DNA from: Candidatus Levyibacteriota bacterium
GTDB taxonomy: Bacteria; Patescibacteriota; Microgenomatia; Levybacterales; UBA12049
Direction of reading: 5' to 3'
Length of the DNA: 64,000 nucleotides
Assembly: GCA_027459725.1 (NCBI GenBank)
Contig: DAIDHK010000002.1
Location: 35,752 to 99,751 of the forward strand
Below the pieces are notes generated by a model. It made no database searches, was not told where the DNA came from, and saw only the letters and a list, made by a program, of their open reading frames with translations. Shown here piece after piece: positions 21,298 to 33,753 of the stretch (its first letter is position 1; every line of letters starts with the position of its first letter). Position numbers and translations under genes: made by a program.

Positions 21298-24200
21298 GTG
21301 TACATAATAAATTTAATACTTCAGATTATTATGTGGCATTTAAGATACTTAGTTATAGTTTTCATTTTTAGTCTTTTTTTTCTGTTAAATTCATCTTATG
21401 CATTTGCGACTGATGGATATTTTGTAATTGGAACGGGTGCAGGCGGGGGTGGAGCTGGAGGTTCCACAGGAGCAACCGGAGGTAACGGCGGAAACGCGGA
21501 TGTAACTATAAACCTAGCCACTAGTTCAGCAAATAATGTAATTTTTGGCAACGGAAGTGGCGGTGGGGCAGGTGGCAGATCTATTGGGTTCACCCCGGAT
21601 GTACGTGGGGGACATGGGGGTAGTGGCAATAACACACTTATAGGGGGATCTGGCAATGATATAATTTTCGGCCACGGATTTAATGGCAGAGACACCTCAG
21701 ATGGAGCATATTTTGCTGGCAATGGGGGTCTGGGTGGAGGAGGAGGCGGTGGTGGCGGCGGTGGATTTGGTATTTCTCCAGGTGGTGCAGGAGGTGGTAT
21801 ATGTGGGGGTGGTGGCGGAGCAGGGACTGATAACGGTGGCGGCGGTGGAATTCTAGTTACATGTAATGGAGCTAATATAGGAGGTAATGCCAATTACAGC
21901 TATGGTGGTAATGGAGGAAACTCTGGATATGATTGGCTAAACAGCCAGGGACTGGGTGGTACATATTCTAGCTACAATGGAGGAGGAGGAGGAGGATTTG
22001 GAGGAGCTACAGGAGGAACCGGATCTACCCCAGCAGGTAATGGTGACACCAAACAACACTGGTACTATGATGCGAATGGTTTAATTTATAAATACTTTAC
22101 TTTATCTGTATTACAGAACATTATGACCAACTACCCTAATTATGGTACTGGAAGCGCCACCATTAACGGTAAAGGAGGAAGTAATGAATTATATGGGCTT
22201 GGTACTGACACTACATTTATTATTGATTCAGCTGATAATGCAACTCAGGATAGAATTTGGGATTTTCATGGTAACGATAAACTATTGTTAGAAACAAATG
22301 GTCAAACAGTGGCAACTGTTGACGTAAATCATATAGTTTCAGGTGCTACTACTGGCGATTATGGATCAGGCGTCGCCAACAATGATACTCAATTTACTTT
22401 TGGAAATACCACAGTTGATCTGATAGGAGTAACATATTCTTTAAGCGCTAGTCCTAATGGAACTGTTAATGCAGTTAACCATCCTCCTACTATCTCATTA
22501 AATAGTACACCCTTAGCTTATACTCCTAGTGCAAGTGCAACTCAACTTGACTCTTCCGGATCTGTCAATGATCCAGACGGAGATAGCAACTGGAATGGTG
22601 GAACGCTGGTGGCCCAAATAACATCTAACTCCATTAGCCAAGACACATTATCCCTAAGCGGGACTAATATTTCCATAGATGGGACGATATTGAAATATAA
22701 TGGTAACCCTGTTGGTGCTATCTATCCCAGTGGCGGTTCTGTAACTGGCAATGGAATATTAACCTTAACTTTTGATAGTGGGGCTACTAATGCCATTGTC
22801 CAGGATATGTTGCAAAATATACGATTTTATACAAATACAGCTGGAACTTATAATCGCATTGTGACTGTGACTGCAACCGATTATGCGGGTGCATCTGCAT
22901 CGGCATACCGGGAAGTCGATGTTGCCGGCGCAGGATCTATTACACTTTATACAGTAAACGCAAATGCCGCTGTAGGAGGCTCAATAAGTCCCACTAGCTG
23001 GAATGTTGTTAGCGGCAGTACTTATCAGTTCAGTATCACACCATCCACTGGATATAGTATCGGCTCTGTGACAGGCTGTAGCGGCTCAATCAGTGGTAAT
23101 ACATATACCACAGGAAATATAGGCTCAGCCTGTGACATTTCAGCCAGCTTTACCCCCAATACTTACACTATGGATTTCAACAGCCAAGGAGGCAATTCTG
23201 TGAGCTCTATCTCTCAAGGTTACAATTCATCATTGACATTGCCAAGCGCTACAAAAGGGGGTTACACATTGTCTAGCTGGAATACAGCCCCAGACGGTAG
23301 TTTAACTTCGTACTCTCCTGGATCAAGCATCAATATGCCCTATAATGGAATTACTCTTTACGCACAATGGGTCATCGAAAATACATCTTCCAACAGCAGC
23401 TCATCAAGTAATAATTCAAATTCCATTAATAGTACTAATCCACCTGCATGTTCTGAAGCCATTCCTACCGGCACTCCTAATATTTATGAATTGAATCCCA
23501 CCACTAATTCAGTAATACTGTATTTTACTCCTGTTTCGAATGCTAATAGTTATTATATTCGCTATGGGACTGATTCCAGCGAGAATCAATTTGCTACTTC
23601 ATTTTCTGATTCAGATCATAGTGGTGCGGTGAGTTTTACCATAAACGATTTGCTACCTGGTTTAACATATTATTTTTCTGTCAGAGGTGGAAATGGCTGC
23701 GCACCAGGAGATTGGTCAACTACATCTTCAGTACGAACAACTTCTATTCAAAGTCTTTCTACCGGGCTATCGGCTAGTCCATCAAATGTCATTCCCACTC
23801 CCGATCAAAACAAAAAAATCAATATTGTTTCTGAAAAGCTGACGACTCAACCCTCAAGTGTTTGTTCATATACTGTACAGTCCGGAGATAGCTTGTGGGA
23901 AATTGCTCAAAATAAACTCAACAATGGTACTCAATACCAAATCTTGGAAAAATTAAATAATTTAACTTCACCTTTAATCTCTTCCGGGCAAGTTTTAAAA
24001 TTACCATGTAATAATCAGCCACAAACATTAGTCCAGGCACAAAATGAAATAAAGCAAACAGGTATAGATTTAAATGTTCAGGTTTTGAGTATGGCTGGTA
24101 CTCCAATGTCAGGTGTCTGGGTAACTCTTCATTCCAAGGTACAGAAAGCCTTAACTGATAAAAACGGAGTTGCACACTTTATAAATATAGATACTGGTCA

Positions 24201-24426
24201 CCATCAGGTAATATTGGCTTACAATGGATTTAACGGTGAACAAAATATTTCTATTACCGGTAAACAAAAACAACAGACTTTAACATTAAGAGTACAGCTA
24301 AATAATACAACACTAACACCTTATGTATGGGGTTTGATAGGCGCTCTAATATCTATAATAATTGTTTTAGTATTAATAATATTCTTACTTTTTAAGAAAA
24401 AACACAAAACTAAAAAGATTGAGTAA
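21298..24426 (+). CDS. Large multi-domain cell-surface protein (Gly-rich RTX-like repeats, InlB B-repeats, Fn3-like, LysM, C-terminal TM anchor)
   Basis: 1042 aa. Signal peptide. About 200 codons of GGxGG repeats including the RTX-like nonapeptide GGSGNDIIFG. A divergent InlB B-repeat (VNANAAVGGSISP...GYSIGSVTGC) and a Listeria-Bacteroides repeat (GYTLSSWNTAPDGS...TLYAQW). LysM (YTVQSGDSLWEIAQ...). C-terminal helix LIGALISIIIVLVLIIFLLFKKKHK. Confidence 0.75.
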   Translation: MYIINLILQIIMWHLRYLVIVFIFSLFFLLNSSYAFATDGYFVIGTGAGGGGAGGSTGATGGNGGNADVTINLATSSANNVIFGNGSGGGAGGRSIGFTPDVRGGHGGSGNNTLIGGSGNDIIFGHGFNGRDTSDGAYFAGNGGLGGGGGGGGGGGFGISPGGAGGGICGGGGGAGTDNGGGGGILVTCNGANIGGNANYSYGGNGGNSGYDWLNSQGLGGTYSSYNGGGGGGFGGATGGTGSTPAGNGDTKQHWYYDANGLIYKYFTLSVLQNIMTNYPNYGTGSATINGKGGSNELYGLGTDTTFIIDSADNATQDRIWDFHGNDKLLLETNGQTVATVDVNHIVSGATTGDYGSGVANNDTQFTFGNTTVDLIGVTYSLSASPNGTVNAVNHPPTISLNSTPLAYTPSASATQLDSSGSVNDPDGDSNWNGGTLVAQITSNSISQDTLSLSGTNISIDGTILKYNGNPVGAIYPSGGSVTGNGILTLTFDSGATNAIVQDMLQNIRFYTNTAGTYNRIVTVTATDYAGASASAYREVDVAGAGSITLYTVNANAAVGGSISPTSWNVVSGSTYQFSITPSTGYSIGSVTGCSGSISGNTYTTGNIGSACDISASFTPNTYTMDFNSQGGNSVSSISQGYNSSLTLPSATKGGYTLSSWNTAPDGSLTSYSPGSSINMPYNGITLYAQWVIENTSSNSSSSSNNSNSINSTNPPACSEAIPTGTPNIYELNPTTNSVILYFTPVSNANSYYIRYGTDSSENQFATSFSDSDHSGAVSFTINDLLPGLTYYFSVRGGNGCAPGDWSTTSSVRTTSIQSLSTGLSASPSNVIPTPDQNKKINIVSEKLTTQPSSVCSYTVQSGDSLWEIAQNKLNNGTQYQILEKLNNLTSPLISSGQVLKLPCNNQPQTLVQAQNEIKQTGIDLNVQVLSMAGTPMSGVWVTLHSKVQKALTDKNGVAHFINIDTGHHQVILAYNGFNGEQNISITGKQKQQTLTLRVQLNNTTLTPYVWGLIGALISIIIVLVLIIFLLFKKKHKTKKIE
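21430..22030 (+). repeat. GGN codon-repeat tract (poly-Gly coding) inside the surface-protein gene
   Basis: Runs of ggt/ggc/gga/ggg codons. It is locally GC-rich and strand-asymmetric, and it creates a spurious Pro-rich antisense ORF. Confidence 0.7.
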
Positions 24427-28781: not shown

Positions 28782-29702
28782 TTAGTTCTTTGCCGATAAA
28801 ATTCTCCTTTGTAAATTTCTTTCCATGTATAAAACTTCTGGGGGGATCTGATCTTCTCTGATTATTCCTTTGGGATAAAGAATAAAATTACGATCGTGCG
28901 CTGTATGTCTTGTTGTATTAAGCATAACTGGATACATAGTATCAAAATATTGTTCTCTATCTTGATCAAGCAAGACTTGTGCTGAAACAGCAGATGAAGA
29001 TCCTTTTTTTATAGCCAAAATAGTACTTTTTTTTAGTCCTTCATTAATTCCTAAATCATAGCCTAAATTTGACAGACGACACGAAAAAAGGTCATGCGGA
29101 AGATAATTTTTATCTTTAGAATATTCCGTATCGGTTGTCCCTCGAAAAGTAGATTTAAAAATTCCTCCAGATACTAGTTTCCTATCTATCATGTCAATTG
29201 CTCGACTCGGATCAATACTATAAGCAATAGAAAATAGTGCTATTACTCCCCCCACGGAGTCATCAGCAATTCCTTCTAAAAGCTCTACCGATGTCAACTT
29301 CACATTCTCACTTCCCAGACCTTCATCTGAATCAAAAAGTGAGTGATATGCAAGATTAGTTGCTTTAAATTTTAATCCTTGTCCTTCTTTCGATCGAGAT
29401 ATAGCAGCAATTCCACGTGTTACACCAGCACCTATATCTAACACCACGTTACTGAAGGGATTATGTTTGACATAATTCAAAAAAAGACTTAATCCACCTA
29501 AATCTGCAATATAACTTTCTTCGTCTCTTGCTCTATTAAATAAACTTTTTCGCTCTAACGTTCTTACCATGCTCAATTGTTTTGCTAAAACTTTTCTTTC
29601 GTATGAGTATTTTATATGATATGGATCACCACTTAATGATTCTGTCATTATTTTGTTTTGTTCTATATCTAGACTATGACAAATAAAGATTAATCTTAAC
29701 AA
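28782..29702 (-). CDS. Class I SAM-dependent methyltransferase (substrate unknown)
   Basis: 306 aa. Motif I VLDIGAGVTRG. No DPPY/NPPY DNA-methyltransferase motif seen. Confidence 0.5.
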   Translation of the reverse strand: MLRLIFICHSLDIEQNKIMTESLSGDPYHIKYSYERKVLAKQLSMVRTLERKSLFNRARDEESYIADLGGLSLFLNYVKHNPFSNVVLDIGAGVTRGIAAISRSKEGQGLKFKATNLAYHSLFDSDEGLGSENVKLTSVELLEGIADDSVGGVIALFSIAYSIDPSRAIDMIDRKLVSGGIFKSTFRGTTDTEYSKDKNYLPHDLFSCRLSNLGYDLGINEGLKKSTILAIKKGSSSAVSAQVLLDQDREQYFDTMYPVMLNTTRHTAHDRNFILYPKGIIREDQIPPEVLYMERNLQRRILSAKN

Positions 29703-30062
29703 ATAAAGATTAATTTGTATATATTCTTACTTTTGAAAATATATTATAAGTTCTATTTAAATTATGGGAATATATAAAAATACAAAAAATATTTTCAATA
29801 TATTAAACTACTCATAGATACGATACCACTGATAATAATCTACTAAACTAAACAATAATTTAAATGAAAGTTATATCGATAATGTATTAACTTGAGAGAA
29901 GTAAATTTTAAATAGCAAATAGTTTTTTTGTCTTAAGAATGCGGGGATTTCTAAGACATACGCTGTTTTTAGCTTCAATATCTACTATAAACACCTAATG
30001 ATAGGATATGCTTTTTCACAAATTATGTCAACTAGAGTATAATTATAATAAAGATTAATTAT

Positions 30063-30989
30063 ATGAGCTGGAACGAAGTTTTAAATGATTTTATTTTACA
30101 AGCACAACAAAATAACCTAAAAACTTCAACGTATCCAAAAGAGTGGGATAGCTTAAGATTGAGAATATCTTTTGGTATGGGAGCACCTGCAAGAATTCCT
30201 TGGGTTGCATTTGTAGCTCCTGATATGGAAGTTAGTAAAGGATTTTATCCGGTTTATTTGTATTATAAAGACTCAAATACCCTAATACTCTCGTACGGCA
30301 TAAGCGAAACAGAGGAATTTGGGAAATCTTGGCCTTCGGAAATAATGAGCTCCGCACAAACTATAACAGCTTATTTTGATAAAAAAGTTGCCAGATACGG
30401 AGACTCATTTGTTTTTAAAGCTTATAAAGTAAATGTTAAGGGAAATAAGGTTGAACTTGCTTATCCGGAAAGTAAAAAAGTTGCAAGTTCACAAGATATT
30501 GAATCAGATTTAGATACTCTTTTAGATTATTACAAAAATGCAGTTAACCTTAGTTCAAGTAGAATATCTCCTGAACTAAGTCAGGGTTTATTTTATATGG
30601 AAAAGCAATTAGAGGATTTTCTGATTGCTAACTGGCCACATACTGAACTTGGAAAGAAATTAGATTTAATAATTGAAGAAGGAGAATTATTAAGCCAACA
30701 ATATAAAACTGATTTAGGACCAATTGATATTTTAGCAAAGGATAAAAAAACCGGAAGTTATGTTGTAATTGAGCTTAAAAAGAACCAAACCAGTGATGAC
30801 ACCATTGGACAATTAGCTCGATATATGGGTTGGATAAGACTTAATAAGAAAGATGATAAAGTAAGAGGCATTATTATCGCCGGTCAATATGACAAAAAAT
30901 TAGATTATGCTTTAAAAATGGTTCCCAATACAGAGGTGTTTATTTATGAGGTTGATTTTAAATTAAACTCTTTTGAAAGAGTGTCATAA
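30063..30989 (+). CDS. DUF3578 (McrB-N-like modified-DNA recognition domain) fused to a NucS/DUF91-like PD-(D/E)xK nuclease domain; candidate modification-dependent (type IV-like) restriction endonuclease
   Basis: 308 aa. N-terminal half LRISFGMGAPARIPWVAFVAPDMEVSKGFYPVYLYYKDSNTLILSYGIS matches the DUF3578/MrcB_N pattern (SFGxG...IPWIAF...KGxYxVYLF...LSL). C-terminal half GPIDILAKDKKTGSYVVIELKK...IGQLARYMGW...VRGIIIAG matches the NucS C-terminal nuclease core (GxIDIL-x-D...VVIELK...Q...Y...RGILIA). Preceded by a ~360-bp AT-rich intergenic region. Confidence 0.6.
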   Translation: MSWNEVLNDFILQAQQNNLKTSTYPKEWDSLRLRISFGMGAPARIPWVAFVAPDMEVSKGFYPVYLYYKDSNTLILSYGISETEEFGKSWPSEIMSSAQTITAYFDKKVARYGDSFVFKAYKVNVKGNKVELAYPESKKVASSQDIESDLDTLLDYYKNAVNLSSSRISPELSQGLFYMEKQLEDFLIANWPHTELGKKLDLIIEEGELLSQQYKTDLGPIDILAKDKKTGSYVVIELKKNQTSDDTIGQLARYMGWIRLNKKDDKVRGIIIAGQYDKKLDYALKMVPNTEVFIYEVDFKLNSFERVS

Positions 30990-31227
30990 AAAAACGCTTT
31001 ATGTCGCACAATCAATGTAGTGCGACGCGAATTTGAGACTAGAGAGAAATTGTAAAAATAAGTTTGAGGCTAATTAACTTACTATGAGTTATAGATTTTA
31101 ATGTTGTTTCTTTTACCAAGATTCTTGTAATTCGCCAACTATTTACGAATTATGGAATATATGCCAGAATCTGAACAGGAAATATATTCCAGACTTAGCT
31201 TCAGCTTTGAAGCTAGATAGATGAATT

Positions 31228-31605
31228 ATGGAAGAACTAATACTTAAAGCTGGAACATTAGGATTTAGTGTATTAGTTTATTCGAATAGGATTGAATATA
31301 AGCCTATTTTTGGCAAAAATATTATTCCTCTTAACAAAATAAACGATATTGAAACTCCTCCAGTTTGGGGCACAAGCTGGGTAAACATAGTCTTAAATAG
31401 CGGAGAGAAAATTCAGCTTACAGTAGGCACGAATAATGTTAAGAAATTTGTTAGTGTCGTCTCTGGACTATTAGAACAAAACAGCAACCCCAAAGCCCCT
31501 ACAAACACCCTAGATGACCTTGAAAAACTGTCTAAGTTGAAAGATAAGGGAATTATTACTCAAAAAGAATTTGATAAGAAGAAAAAACAACTTCTAAACC
31601 TCTAA
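31228..31605 (+). CDS. SHOCT-domain protein with N-terminal PH-like domain
   Basis: 125 aa. C-terminus LEKLSKLKDKGIITQKEFDKKKKQLL is the SHOCT pattern. Nested inverted repeats lie upstream (31153-31190 and 31196-31215). Confidence 0.5.
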   Translation: MEELILKAGTLGFSVLVYSNRIEYKPIFGKNIIPLNKINDIETPPVWGTSWVNIVLNSGEKIQLTVGTNNVKKFVSVVSGLLEQNSNPKAPTNTLDDLEKLSKLKDKGIITQKEFDKKKKQLLNL

Positions 31606-31614
31606 TTCCAGATT

Positions 31615-32070
31615 TTGTCCGACGCTAAAATCGACTCGCGATATAATTGTATTATGGATACGAACACAGTTGGCAAACCAGCGCTAACTCAGGAACAAAT
31701 TGATGAAGTATTCCGCAAAATAGAACCTTATCTTAAAACCGGAGTAAGTCTTAATAAAGCTTGTCTTTCTGCTGGAATTGCAAAATCAACGGCTTACGAT
31801 TTATATAGAGAAAATGAGTCATTTGCGGAAAAAGTTGATACAGCTAGAAACTATTGCTCAATTCTTGCAAATAGCGTATTTTTAAAGTCTCTTGAGAGAA
31901 TAAATTCAATTGCCGGAACAAGAGAATTAACAGATGGAGAGCTAAAACTACTTGAATGGCTGATTGCCCTACCAATATTCCTTCACGTTTCAACTCCTCC
32001 TGAATCTCATACTTTGACTTCTCAAGATCAGATACTCGTATATCATAAACTCTTTGTTGTATCCACTTAG
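31615..32070 (+). CDS. HTH-domain protein (3' part probably spurious read-through into the transposase fragment)
   Basis: 151 aa. Predicted HTH GVSLNKACLSAGIAKSTAYDLYRE. The C-terminal ~40 codons overlap the antisense transposase ORF. Confidence 0.4.
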   Translation: MSDAKIDSRYNCIMDTNTVGKPALTQEQIDEVFRKIEPYLKTGVSLNKACLSAGIAKSTAYDLYRENESFAEKVDTARNYCSILANSVFLKSLERINSIAGTRELTDGELKLLEWLIALPIFLHVSTPPESHTLTSQDQILVYHKLFVVST

Positions 32071-32350
32071 GTGTCGTCATCTCTCGCACTTTATGTGGCC
32101 TTCGTGTGTGTTTATCATCCTCCAATGTCTGAAGATTCCGTGGATTGTATCTCTTCTTCCAGCGATAAAATACACTTTTTGATATTCCAAAATGTCGACA
32201 CGTTCCCTCTGCATTTTTATCATGACTGAAATACCAATCAATCCAGAGCAAACGTCTCTGTGCATCTTTAGAAAGCTGTGCCGCTTGAATAACTGGGACT
32301 GGTAATATGTTGTAGTGACGCATAACTGCGTCATTGTATCGTTTGGACAA
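31844..32350 (-). mobile_element. Truncated IS transposase, N-terminal HTH only (IS481/IS3-like), no DDE domain
   Basis: CRHFGISKSVFYRWKKRY is the classic transposase HTH. DDKHTRRPHKVREMTTPKWIQQRVYDIR...GQSAIQVVLALH follows. No catalytic rve region downstream; its 3' part is out-of-frame read-through. Confidence 0.5.
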
Positions 32351-32459
32351 TTTACTCTCAACCGTTCTTTATCTATCCCAACCTAGACAAATAGAAGCTT
32401 GGATTTCTCTAAGCCTCTATTCAACTTCCCCAGTGTTCCCCTAATGGTTTCTCGCTGCC

Positions 32460-32490
32460 AATAAAAAAACACCTTTTTACAGGTGTTTCG
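32460..32490 (-). terminator. Rho-independent terminator downstream of ftsZ
   Basis: Stem aacacct / aggtgtt (32468-32474 and 32481-32487) with a 6-nt loop. On the minus strand it is followed by TTTTTTTATT. Confidence 0.6.
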
Positions 32491-32511
32491 CGTAAATCGT
32501 AGCTAATTAGA

Positions 32512-33753
32512 CTAGTTTTTTTGTCTTAGAAATGCAGGGATGTCCCAGGCATCTTCATCAGAAGCTTCTTCTGATCCATTCTGCTTAGGAGTTGTTGCTT
32601 GATTGTTATTACCATTATTATTCATTGCATTCCCATTATTCAAGAATGGGTTAGGTAACGTTTGGTTATTGTTTGTATTTTGAGAAGAAGCTGAATTATT
32701 ATTTTGTTGAGACTGAGGAGCCGACTGGGCTTTTTCTTCAGTTATCCAACGATTAGCTGGAGGCACCATAAATTGCTGTAAATGCTGTTTGGAGTTATCA
32801 AAACCCGTTGCTACTACAGTGATACGCATAGAACTATTCATCGTCTCATCGATAGTAGCACCAAAAATAATATTGGCATCTGGATCAGCAGAACTAGCAA
32901 TAATTTTAGCCGCTTCATCTACTTCTGTCATTGTTAAGTCACTACCACCTACGATATTAAATAATACCCCTCGCGCTCCCTCCATAGAAATCTCTAAAAG
33001 AGGTGAGGCAATAGCAGCACGTGCAGCTGCTTGAGCACGATTCTCACCATCAGCTATACCAATACCCATGAGAGTAGAGCCTGCGTTAGCCATAATAGCT
33101 TTCACATCGGCAAAATCAACATTAATCAAACCGGGAAGTGTAATAATCTCTGAAATACCCTGTACACCTTGATTCAAAACAGAATCAGCTACTTTAAAAG
33201 CCTCTAACAATGATAATTTTCGATCAACTACATCCAGTATTCGCTGATTAGGAATCACAATTAATGTATCAACTTTATCTTTAATATTTTCAATTCCTTC
33301 TTCTGCAGCGACCATACGACGTGTACCTTCAAATGAAAACGGCTTGGTTACTACGGCCACGGTTAGCGCTCCTACCTCTTTAGCTATTTGGGCGACTACT
33401 GGGGCAGCCCCTGTTCCTGTTCCTCCACCCATCCCGGCTGTGATAAAAACCATATCAGATCCTTGTAAGGTTTGTTTAATTTTTTCTGCTGACTCTTCAG
33501 CAGCTTGACGTCCAGTTTCTGGATCTCCCCCTGAACCTAATCCCTTGGTATATTGTTCTCCTATTTGAATTTTGGTTTCAGAATTATTACGCAATAATGC
33601 CTGGGCATCTGTATTCATTGCCACGAAATCAACTCCTTGAATATTTCCGTTGGCAATCATTGAGTTGACAGCATTTCCACCACCACCACCTACTCCTATA
33701 ACTCTGATTTTGGCGAAATTTGAAGTTTGAGGTCGTATCAGCATGTTGCACAA
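32512..33753 (-). CDS. ftsZ: Cell division GTPase FtsZ
   Basis: 413 aa. GGGGGNAVN and tubulin signature [15 protein letters not shown]-rich disordered linker, then the C-terminal peptide DIPAFLR. Confidence 0.95.

Follow-up and report, generated by a model that had tools for sequence, protein, structure and literature searches.

The 64,000-nucleotide stretch of a Candidatus Levyibacteriota genome analyzed here (contig DAIDHK010000002.1, positions 35,752 to 99,751; hereafter the window) contains a 308-residue open reading frame (ORF) that fuses a McrB-N-like DNA-reading domain to a NucS-like PD-(D/E)xK nuclease domain. We propose, with a probability of roughly 0.7, that its product is a modified-cytosine-dependent DNA endonuclease acting in defense, a stand-alone, single-chain type IV enzyme that would work independently of nucleoside triphosphates (NTPs). 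What the analysis shows is the two folds, a pocket and an active site whose key residues are intact, the absence of partner genes, a patchy distribution across bacteria and archaea, and the setting in a mobile islet; which base is read, that DNA is cut, how many subunits take part, and the role in defense are inferred from domain content. The gene and its parts are these:

30063 to 30989, plus strand: complete reader-nuclease fusion gene including the stop codon (ATG start, 308 aa, two Pfam domains above their cut-offs)
30063 to 30542, plus strand: McrB-N/DUF3578 ("ADAM") domain, residues 1-160, predicted base-flipping reader of modified cytosine (Pfam, PDB sequence, and Foldseek matches)
30543 to 30596, plus strand: variable, low-confidence linker, residues 161-178 (predicted local distance difference test score, pLDDT, below 50 for residues 163-178; least conserved stretch of the family alignment)
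30597 to 30986, plus strand: NucS-like PD-(D/E)xK domain, residues 179-308 (NucS_C at 199-278, YhcG_C at 178-295, NucS alignment, Foldseek matches to EndoMS/NucS and Can2)

The initial annotation of this DNA had called the N-terminal part DUF3578/McrB-N and the C-terminal part NucS-like, quoting a sequence string for each. The ORF and both strings are present as described, and both domain calls are borne out. In Pfam, MrcB_N/DUF3578 (PF12102) covers residues 23-160 at 42.8 bits against a cut-off of 25 and NucS_C (PF01939) covers residues 199-278 at 55 bits against 24, with YhcG_C falling just under its threshold over residues 178-295. The NCBIfam McrB equivalog matches in its N-terminal part (residues 6-192, E 1.5e-24), and NCBIfam NucS matches in its C-terminal part only (residues 203-279, E 2e-16), the two NucS equivalogs reaching 59.8 bits (cut-off 216) and 41.6 bits (cut-off 252). 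All three equivalog scores lie far under the full-length cut-offs, as would be expected of a chimera. Neither Pfam nor NCBIfam gave a match in the 308-aa protein to AAA_5 or any other P-loop, or to the NucS N-terminal domain; the true McrB proteins among the relatives (L055-L071) do have AAA_5. A protein identical to the 308-aa product is present in NCBI (P0001).

Structural comparisons agree with these assignments. In a sequence search of the PDB, the N-terminal half matched EcoKMcrB-N (3SSC and relatives, E 7e-21) and the C-terminal half matched Pyrococcus abyssi NucS and Thermococcus kodakarensis EndoMS (2VLD and 5GKE). The AlphaFold2 model, built from 30 homologues with a mean pLDDT of 74.6 and a predicted template modeling (TM) score, pTM, of 0.52, comprises two well-folded halves and a low-confidence joining segment. 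Foldseek aligned the N-terminal half with McrB-N structures (3SSC, 3SSD, 3SSE, 6GCD-F, and 8IJO) at target-normalized TM-scores of 0.78-0.82 and E ≈ 5e-10, and the C-terminal half, a predicted PD-(D/E)xK fold, with EndoMS/NucS at E 7e-6 to 4e-4 as well as with the Can2 nuclease domain. The Pfam, NCBIfam, PDB, and Foldseek match values are far beyond chance.

The reader domain is 42% identical to EcoKMcrB-N (49 of 116 aligned residues). In McrB-N, S38 and W49 hold the flipped nucleotide by its phosphates, and the pocket is walled by W49, L68, and Y117 on one side, with Y117 stacking on the flipped base, and by Y64, A59, and S60 on the other; Y64 and L68 contact the 5-methyl group, by which 5-methylcytosine (5mC) is told from cytosine, and the Watson-Crick edge is recognized by the main chain at residues 82-85 (PMC3424535). 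The equivalent residues here are S36, W47, L66, Y112, Y62, V57, S58, I80, E82, and T83, among which S36, W47, Y62, L66, Y112, I80, and T83 are kept relative to EcoKMcrB-N. Across the 43 members of the family alignment, S36 is present in 41, W47 in 42, Y62 in 35, and both L66 and Y112 in all 43. Judged from these alignments, the pocket for modified cytosine is intact. Where McrB has its intercalating Tyr41, the window protein has M39 and the family Met (29/43) or Gln (13/43); the residue at this position differs from one McrB homologue to another and may adjust the preference for sequence context (PMC3424535); the finger loop around it (residues 39-43) is of low confidence in the AlphaFold2 model. 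EcoKMcrB-N also accommodates 5-hydroxymethylcytosine (5hmC) and N4-methylcytosine (4mC), as seen in structures 6GCD-6GCF.

The nuclease domain carries the motif D222...E237-L-K239...Q250xxxY254, all five residues of which are invariant in the same 43 sequences. This motif aligns with the active-site segment of NucS, G-x-V-D...V-L-E-L-K...Q-x-x-x-Y (2VLD and 5GKE; the catalytic segment of P. abyssi NucS). The position aligned to D222 is an alanine in the EndoMS chain of 5GKE. We take this EndoMS-DNA complex to have been solved with a catalytic Asp-to-Ala mutant, in which case the alanine would fit a catalytic role for D222. Ahead of the nuclease core, the helix YMEKQLEDF (residues 178-186) is almost invariant in the family alignment and probably supplies the extra acidic residue common in the PD-(D/E)xK superfamily.

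A search of 5.8 billion proteins returned 1977 matches. The best 120 of these are 295-321 aa long, are 64-73% identical to the window protein, and all carry precomputed MrcB_N and NucS_C domains; the few database names given are "PDDEXK nuclease domain-containing protein," "DUF1016 family protein," and "hypothetical protein." A scan of one genome per species yielded 44 loci with a match over essentially the full length of the protein, at 50-69% identity. The bacterial carriers include Syntrophorhabdus, Gammaproteobacteria, Dehalococcoidia, Bacteroidota, Marinimicrobia, SAR11, SAR86, SAR324, and many lineages of the candidate phyla radiation (CPR), and the archaeal carriers, DPANN among them, include Bathyarchaeota, Woesearchaeota, Aenigmatarchaeota, Nitrososphaerales, and Thermoplasmata. 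Overall identity to the window protein is 50-73% across these bacterial and archaeal phyla, and a library clustered at the 50% level retains only a handful of full-length representatives. So tight a family spread over bacteria and archaea is a signature of horizontal transfer. In a scan of viral contigs, a single contig matched, with the C-terminal nuclease half only; as no full-length homologue was found there, we rejected a phage-encoded origin.

Both modules also occur in other combinations. Close relatives of the reader appear as true McrB proteins with an AAA_5 GTPase (L055-L071, P0205, P0251, P0149, and P0186), as a fusion to Mrr_cat (P0156, 374 aa), and as a fusion to an HNH nuclease, HNH_2 (P0196, 303 aa). 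Close relatives of the nuclease, 41-64% identical and sharing the EKQLEDF helix, stand behind a DUF3427-like domain in L050 (26.7 bits, just under the cut-off of 27.7), behind the N-domain that defines the PADLOC candidate PDC-S02 in L054, and behind at least two further N-terminal domains without family assignment in L046 and L073. DUF3427 is the modified-cytosine sensor of SauUSI and McaZI. A preprint (10.1101/2025.04.06.647449) counts ADAM/DUF3578 as one of the readers recruiting HNH nucleases, which fits the P0196 fusion. Type IV restriction modules would be expected to exchange partners in just this way, with one reader serving three unrelated nucleases and one nuclease serving several readers. 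Another relative of the reader, the 489-aa protein P0174, joins the McrB-N/ADAM domain to sigma-70 region 4 and a LuxR/GerE-type helix-turn-helix (HTH), with no nuclease, and could be a methylcytosine-sensing transcription regulator.

Compared with EcoKMcrBC, the window protein has a homologous N-terminal DNA-reading domain (TM ≈ 0.8, with the same pocket residues), for which modified cytosine is the expected target class. It differs in having neither the AAA+ GTPase motor nor McrC, in carrying its nuclease in the same chain, NucS-like rather than McrC-like, and in the exchange of Tyr41 for Met. Lacking the GTPase, it is neither McrB nor part of McrBC, and with no motor or McrC and a NucS-like nuclease in the same chain, cleavage after long-range translocation between two sites is not expected. 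With NucS/EndoMS, the protein shares the C-terminal PD-(D/E)xK domain and the same D...ExK...QxxxY signature at weak sequence similarity (E ≈ 1e-3 by phmmer), but the McrB-N reader takes the place of the N-terminal mismatch-binding and dimerization domain. Because it lacks the NucS N-domain and scores far below the equivalog cut-offs, it is not NucS.

Two systems described in preprints pair a NucS-like nuclease with a modified-base sensor in one protein, as is predicted for the window protein: END-Mag, with an iEndoIII sensor and a NucS-like PD-DExK nuclease (Yee et al., PMC12191111), and Madara/PDC-S11, with an EVE-like domain (10.64898/2026.09.05.749240). Both restrict phages with modified DNA, and these precedents make the ADAM-NucS architecture less exotic. 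The window protein differs from them in its sensor, which is McrB-N/ADAM rather than inactive EndoIII or EVE-like, and in the reversed domain order of Madara; their targets are modified G or glucosyl-hydroxymethylcytosine (glucosyl-hmC), whereas the predicted target here is of the 5mC type. In PADLOC, PDC-S11 gave a weak match on the nuclease core (E 1.2e-7), and the C-terminal 155 residues matched two PDC-S02 profiles at E 6.5e-46 and 3.4e-37. The nuclease is 38-45% identical to that of Arthrobacter-group PDC-S02 proteins, but the window protein covers positions 152-306 of the 308 in the profile, whereas the true member L054 covers 1-306, and three further PDC-S02 profiles match L054 only in its N-terminal part (residues 1-195). 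Lacking this N-domain, the window protein is not PDC-S02 by full-length criteria.

Single-chain modification-dependent enzymes also include MspJI, the SRA/EVE-HNH enzymes TagI and VcaM4I, and PvuRts1I/AbaSI. The DUF3427-PD-(D/E)XK enzyme McaZI belongs here as well (Lutz et al. 2019, PMC6765204). The window protein has the same plan of one reader and one nuclease with no NTPase and no methyltransferase, and differs in that both of its domains come from other families. The initial annotation had judged the architecture compact and poorly described. We found no description of a fusion of McrB-N/ADAM with NucS_C in the searchable literature (most subscription journals and REBASE lay outside the search), but the reader-plus-nuclease design of single-chain type IV enzymes is well established (PMC3874153, PMC6765204, PMC7641849, and PMC11090510), and the family is large and present in databases.

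We envisage that the McrB-N/ADAM domain would approach DNA through the minor groove and turn a modified cytosine out into its aromatic pocket. The likeliest target is 5mC, with 5hmC or N4-methylcytosine as further possibilities, in line with E. coli McrB-N. A flexible linker of ≈18 residues would tie the reader to the NucS-like nuclease, which is probably dimeric, two protomers bringing their nuclease domains together. Both strands would then be cut near the recognized base with no NTP hydrolysis and no translocation, in the manner of MspJI-, SRA-HNH-, and PvuRts1I-type enzymes, and host DNA would be spared because the recognized modification is absent from it.

The gene lies in a small islet within otherwise ordinary DNA. 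Most of the window holds housekeeping genes, including a cell-division and cell-wall cluster from mraW to ftsZ, polA, and F420-related genes; its G+C content is 34.7%, and that of the gene, at 32%, is no outlier. The features of the islet and its immediate left flank are as follows:

28782 to 29702, minus strand: 306-aa ORF left of the islet, with a "VLDIGAG" string resembling an S-adenosylmethionine-binding motif (no Pfam match at E < 0.01)
29920 to 29959, no strand assigned: left copy of a 40-nt imperfect direct repeat, the proposed left islet boundary; a relic of the ftsZ 3' end in the minus-strand reading
30015 to 30043, plus strand: promoter-like site TTCACA-17-TATAAT, 11 of 12 consensus matches, 20 nt before the ATG (consensus scan, candidate only)
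31228 to 31605, plus strand: 125-aa protein with a C-terminal SHOCT domain (Pfam, 33.7 bits against a cut-off of 27)
31615 to 32070, plus strand: 151-aa ORF with a sub-threshold match to a small-terminase-like HTH
31844 to 32350, minus strand: 168-aa ORF with a transposase/integrase-type HTH only (HTH_28 passes its cut-off with 32.8 bits, whereas HTH_32 and HTH_Tnp_1 fall short)
32513 to 32552, no strand assigned: right copy of the 40-nt repeat, formed by the genuine ftsZ 3' end (minus strand); the proposed right islet boundary

The two repeat copies are identical at 33 of 40 positions (83%), with a 16-nt exact core, and a search for the 29-nt repeat core with up to three mismatches returned only these two sites (0 expected in 100 shuffles). 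When the left copy is translated in the frame of ftsZ, it too specifies the C-terminal peptide of FtsZ (IPAFLRQKN); the codon differences are synonymous, and a Tyr codon stands where ftsZ has its stop. This pattern suggests an integrating element that targets the 3' end of a gene, here ftsZ, and supplies a replacement end. Between the repeats, the 2.55-kb islet (29960-32512) holds the reader-nuclease gene, the SHOCT gene, and the 168-aa HTH ORF. Since the window contains no tRNA genes, the islet is not tRNA-targeted. We looked for an empty site by comparing FtsZ with metagenome contigs, but the best matches were 47-69% identical and none had homologues of the window's flanking genes, so that the insertion was not confirmed by comparison.

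A small island beside a transposase remnant had been the setting given in the initial annotation. The islet in the cell-division cluster accords with the first part, although no defense island surrounds the gene in the window. As for the second, the HTH_28-, HTH_32-, and HTH_Tnp_1-type matches of the 168-aa ORF are compatible with a transposase, but Pfam detects no catalytic domain in it, and these matches are not proof; the ORF is possibly a remnant of the islet's mobility gene. It overlaps the 151-aa ORF on the opposite strand by 227 nt, and likely at most one of the two is a real gene. The region from 31615 to 32350 looks like decayed mobile-element DNA, and with no integrase in the islet, the element as a whole looks decayed. 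Promoter-like sites are no more numerous in this AT-rich region than in shuffled sequence.

No GTPase, McrC, or DNA methyltransferase lies next to the gene in the window, in agreement with the earlier statement that it has no GTPase or methyltransferase partner. Its neighbors are a family-8 glycosyl hydrolase (GH8), the 306-aa protein, the SHOCT protein, and the HTH ORF, and no C5 or N4/N6 methyltransferase motif occurs in any window ORF of at least 90 aa. The 306-aa ORF was considered as a methyltransferase partner and rejected, as it has neither a DNA-methyltransferase motif nor a Pfam match and lies outside the repeat-bounded islet. Two features expected of a single-chain type IV enzyme are present: a predicted modified-base reader in one chain with an endonuclease domain whose active site is intact, and the absence of a cognate methyltransferase.

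The homologues present a similar picture. A crude methyltransferase motif scan over 10 kb on either side of the 44 full-length loci gave only one Dam-like candidate (L007). Neighborhood counts rest on the 42 of 44 loci in which the ORF caller recovered the gene, with 148 genes within two positions of the homologue and 135 Pfam families; among the 25 most frequent of these families, no GTPase, McrC-type protein, or DNA methyltransferase is recurrent. Nor is any antitoxin or immunity partner recurrent in the 42 loci, or the SHOCT gene of the window. Other neighbors of defense type are singletons (PD-T7-4, SduA, mad2, and a restriction-modification control protein), and in L077 an MmeI-like enzyme is 6.4 kb from the gene. 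In the SAR11 (Pelagibacteraceae) loci L024, L025, L026, and L041, the gene lies downstream of the dnaG-rpoD operon; it is directly 3' of dnaG-rpoD in four Pelagibacteraceae single-cell genomes, one gene intervenes in L026, and in a metagenome-assembled genome of a gammaproteobacterium (L006), two short ORFs stand between rpoD and the gene. The predicted restriction enzyme is fairly common in these very streamlined Pelagibacteraceae genomes. PADLOC matched neighbors to MzaA (4) and to RT_UG29 and RTasDnaG-like (3 each). We treat these as probable cross-matches to housekeeping proteins, since their counts equal those of the neighboring sigma-70 (4) and primase (3) genes, the RpoD and DnaG of SAR11-type loci; ten other large neighbors had no PADLOC match. 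The context is that of a solitary mobile gene in many places, sometimes beside defense genes, and homologues were consistently in neither housekeeping contexts nor defense islands across the neighborhoods examined.

One association does recur. A DUF2075/Schlafen-group-3 helicase is encoded directly upstream in 6 of the 42 loci, in unrelated taxa (Bacteroidetes L011, archaeon L017, Saccharibacteria L019 and L020, Nitrososphaerales L021, and Falkowbacteria L044), and in the neighborhood of P0114 (L079-L081), seven in all. Six of the seven also contain a MazG-like pyrophosphohydrolase, L011 having the helicase only:

L019:8083-9973, upstream of the gene: MazG-like gene and helicase
L020:8072-9972, upstream of the gene: MazG-like gene and helicase
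L044:8045-9963, upstream of the gene: MazG-like gene and helicase
L017:7702-9932, upstream of the gene: MazG-like gene and helicase
L021:7604-9859, upstream of the gene: MazG-like gene and helicase
L079:5057-6978, upstream of the gene: MazG-like gene and helicase
L011:2067-4091, upstream of the reader-nuclease gene: helicase only

In five of the seven neighborhoods, helicase and gene share a strand, with the helicase first and 19-34 nt between them. The helicases are of two subtypes, one with an N-terminus like GIY-YIG and the other with a PD-(D/E)xK-like N-terminus, so the association with the reader-nuclease gene arose at least twice. In PADLOC, the DUF2075 helicases match Nhi, AbiO, and PDC-S41, and a search of the same literature gave no description of DUF2075 together with MazG. 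The MazG-like protein, the DUF2075 helicase, and the reader-nuclease may form an undescribed two- or three-gene defense cassette. As an alternative, the reader-nuclease could be one component of a three-gene system and the window copy an orphan deprived of its partners, perhaps non-functional alone or working differently. The spread of the arrangement over very different taxa, its close same-strand spacing, and its repeated origin favor this explanation, yet about 85% of the 42 loci are without the helicase/MazG pair, the pair is divergent rather than operonic in L017 and L021, and the window protein retains every catalytic and pocket residue. Type IV enzymes, moreover, commonly adjoin other defense genes without depending on them. 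We regard a dependent component as unlikely and prefer the stand-alone endonuclease.

A different possibility is a housekeeping or DNA-repair nuclease whose reader finds methylated or damaged cytosines in the cell's own DNA, as in a methylation-directed, NucS-like repair. Such a role would suit a nuclease of the NucS/EndoMS mismatch-repair type, identities of 50-73% across phyla, and the presence of the gene in streamlined genomes (SAR11, CPR, and DPANN), often by dnaG-rpoD or ftsZ. Against it, the patchy distribution, with few clusters at 50% identity across both domains of life, points to horizontal transfer and not to vertical descent, the islet around the window copy looks inserted and has attachment-site-like (att-like) repeats, the mismatch-binding and dimerization domain of NucS is absent, and both domains are shuffled with other restriction-type modules. 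We judge a repair role slightly less likely than dependence on a three-gene system. Least likely, by a small margin, is a toxic or abortive-infection effector, or a selfish mobile-element nuclease, whose McrB-N-like domain is a general DNA binder and whose cleavage is not modification-specific: McrB-N flips unmodified cytosine too in crystals (PMC3424535), Tyr41 is replaced, the gene travels in a small mobile islet, and the authors of the Madara study leave a non-specific abortive response open for their NucS-like enzyme (10.64898/2026.09.05.749240), but the 5-methyl-sensing residues Y62 (35/43) and L66 (43/43) are retained, no antitoxin or immunity partner recurs, and viral copies are essentially absent apart from the one C-terminal match.

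Several points weigh against the modified-cytosine-dependent endonuclease that we favor. The Y41A and Y41Q substitutions weaken binding by McrB-N (PMC3424535), and the window family has Met or Gln at this position. NucS dimerizes through a domain that the window protein is without, and the AlphaFold2 model is itself only moderately confident. The conservation of the sequence is unusually high for a defense gene. Most neighborhoods are not defense islands, the SAR11 copies following dnaG-rpoD and the window copy ending a cell-division cluster, and the MzaA, RT_UG29, and RTasDnaG-like matches are probably cross-matches to RpoD and DnaG. Finally, one PDC-S02 representative gave no protection against T4, T5, and T7 in E. 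coli B (10.1101/2024.09.26.614923). That result is uninformative for a 5mC-directed enzyme, as the N-domain of the representative is not stated and none of T4, T5, and T7 carries plain 5mC.

Should the prediction of a modified-cytosine-dependent endonuclease be true, the McrB methylcytosine reader would work without a GTP-driven motor. MspJI and AbaSI are useful reagents in epigenetics, and a small, NTP-independent, 5mC-dependent endonuclease would join the class that yielded them. The gene would also be a concrete defense gene for very small genomes (SAR11, CPR bacteria, and DPANN archaea), and its near-identical copies in both prokaryotic domains would be a clear case of cross-domain transfer of a defense gene. 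No new principle is involved, since type IV systems are well known to shuffle readers and nucleases; the added interest lies in the spread across both domains among streamlined genomes, in the MazG-like/DUF2075 cassette that recurs, and in the apparent insertion at the ftsZ end. As a tentative and rather doubtful extension, ADAM-NucS might be the main compact methylcytosine-directed restriction enzyme of streamlined and episymbiotic prokaryotes (SAR11, SAR86, CPR, and DPANN), a nearly invariant single-gene cassette that moves between bacteria and archaea and in some lineages forms a three-gene system with the MazG-like/DUF2075 pair. If so, the lack of an NTP requirement and the well-understood McrB-N pocket would imply cutting at a fixed short distance from 5mC and a possible tool enzyme for methylome mapping.

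Two further ORFs of the window lie apart from this subject. A 1042-aa ORF (21298-24426, plus strand) has a very glycine-rich N-terminal region, Ig-like repeats, a LysM-like stretch, and a C-terminal membrane anchor, and is probably a large surface protein. Elsewhere, several Cas4 profiles match another ORF (best E 1e-15), and there is a weak Cas1b match as well (E 4.6e-09); no other cas-gene profile matched in the window, and the Cas4-like ORF probably encodes a stand-alone nuclease of the RecB/Cas4 family.

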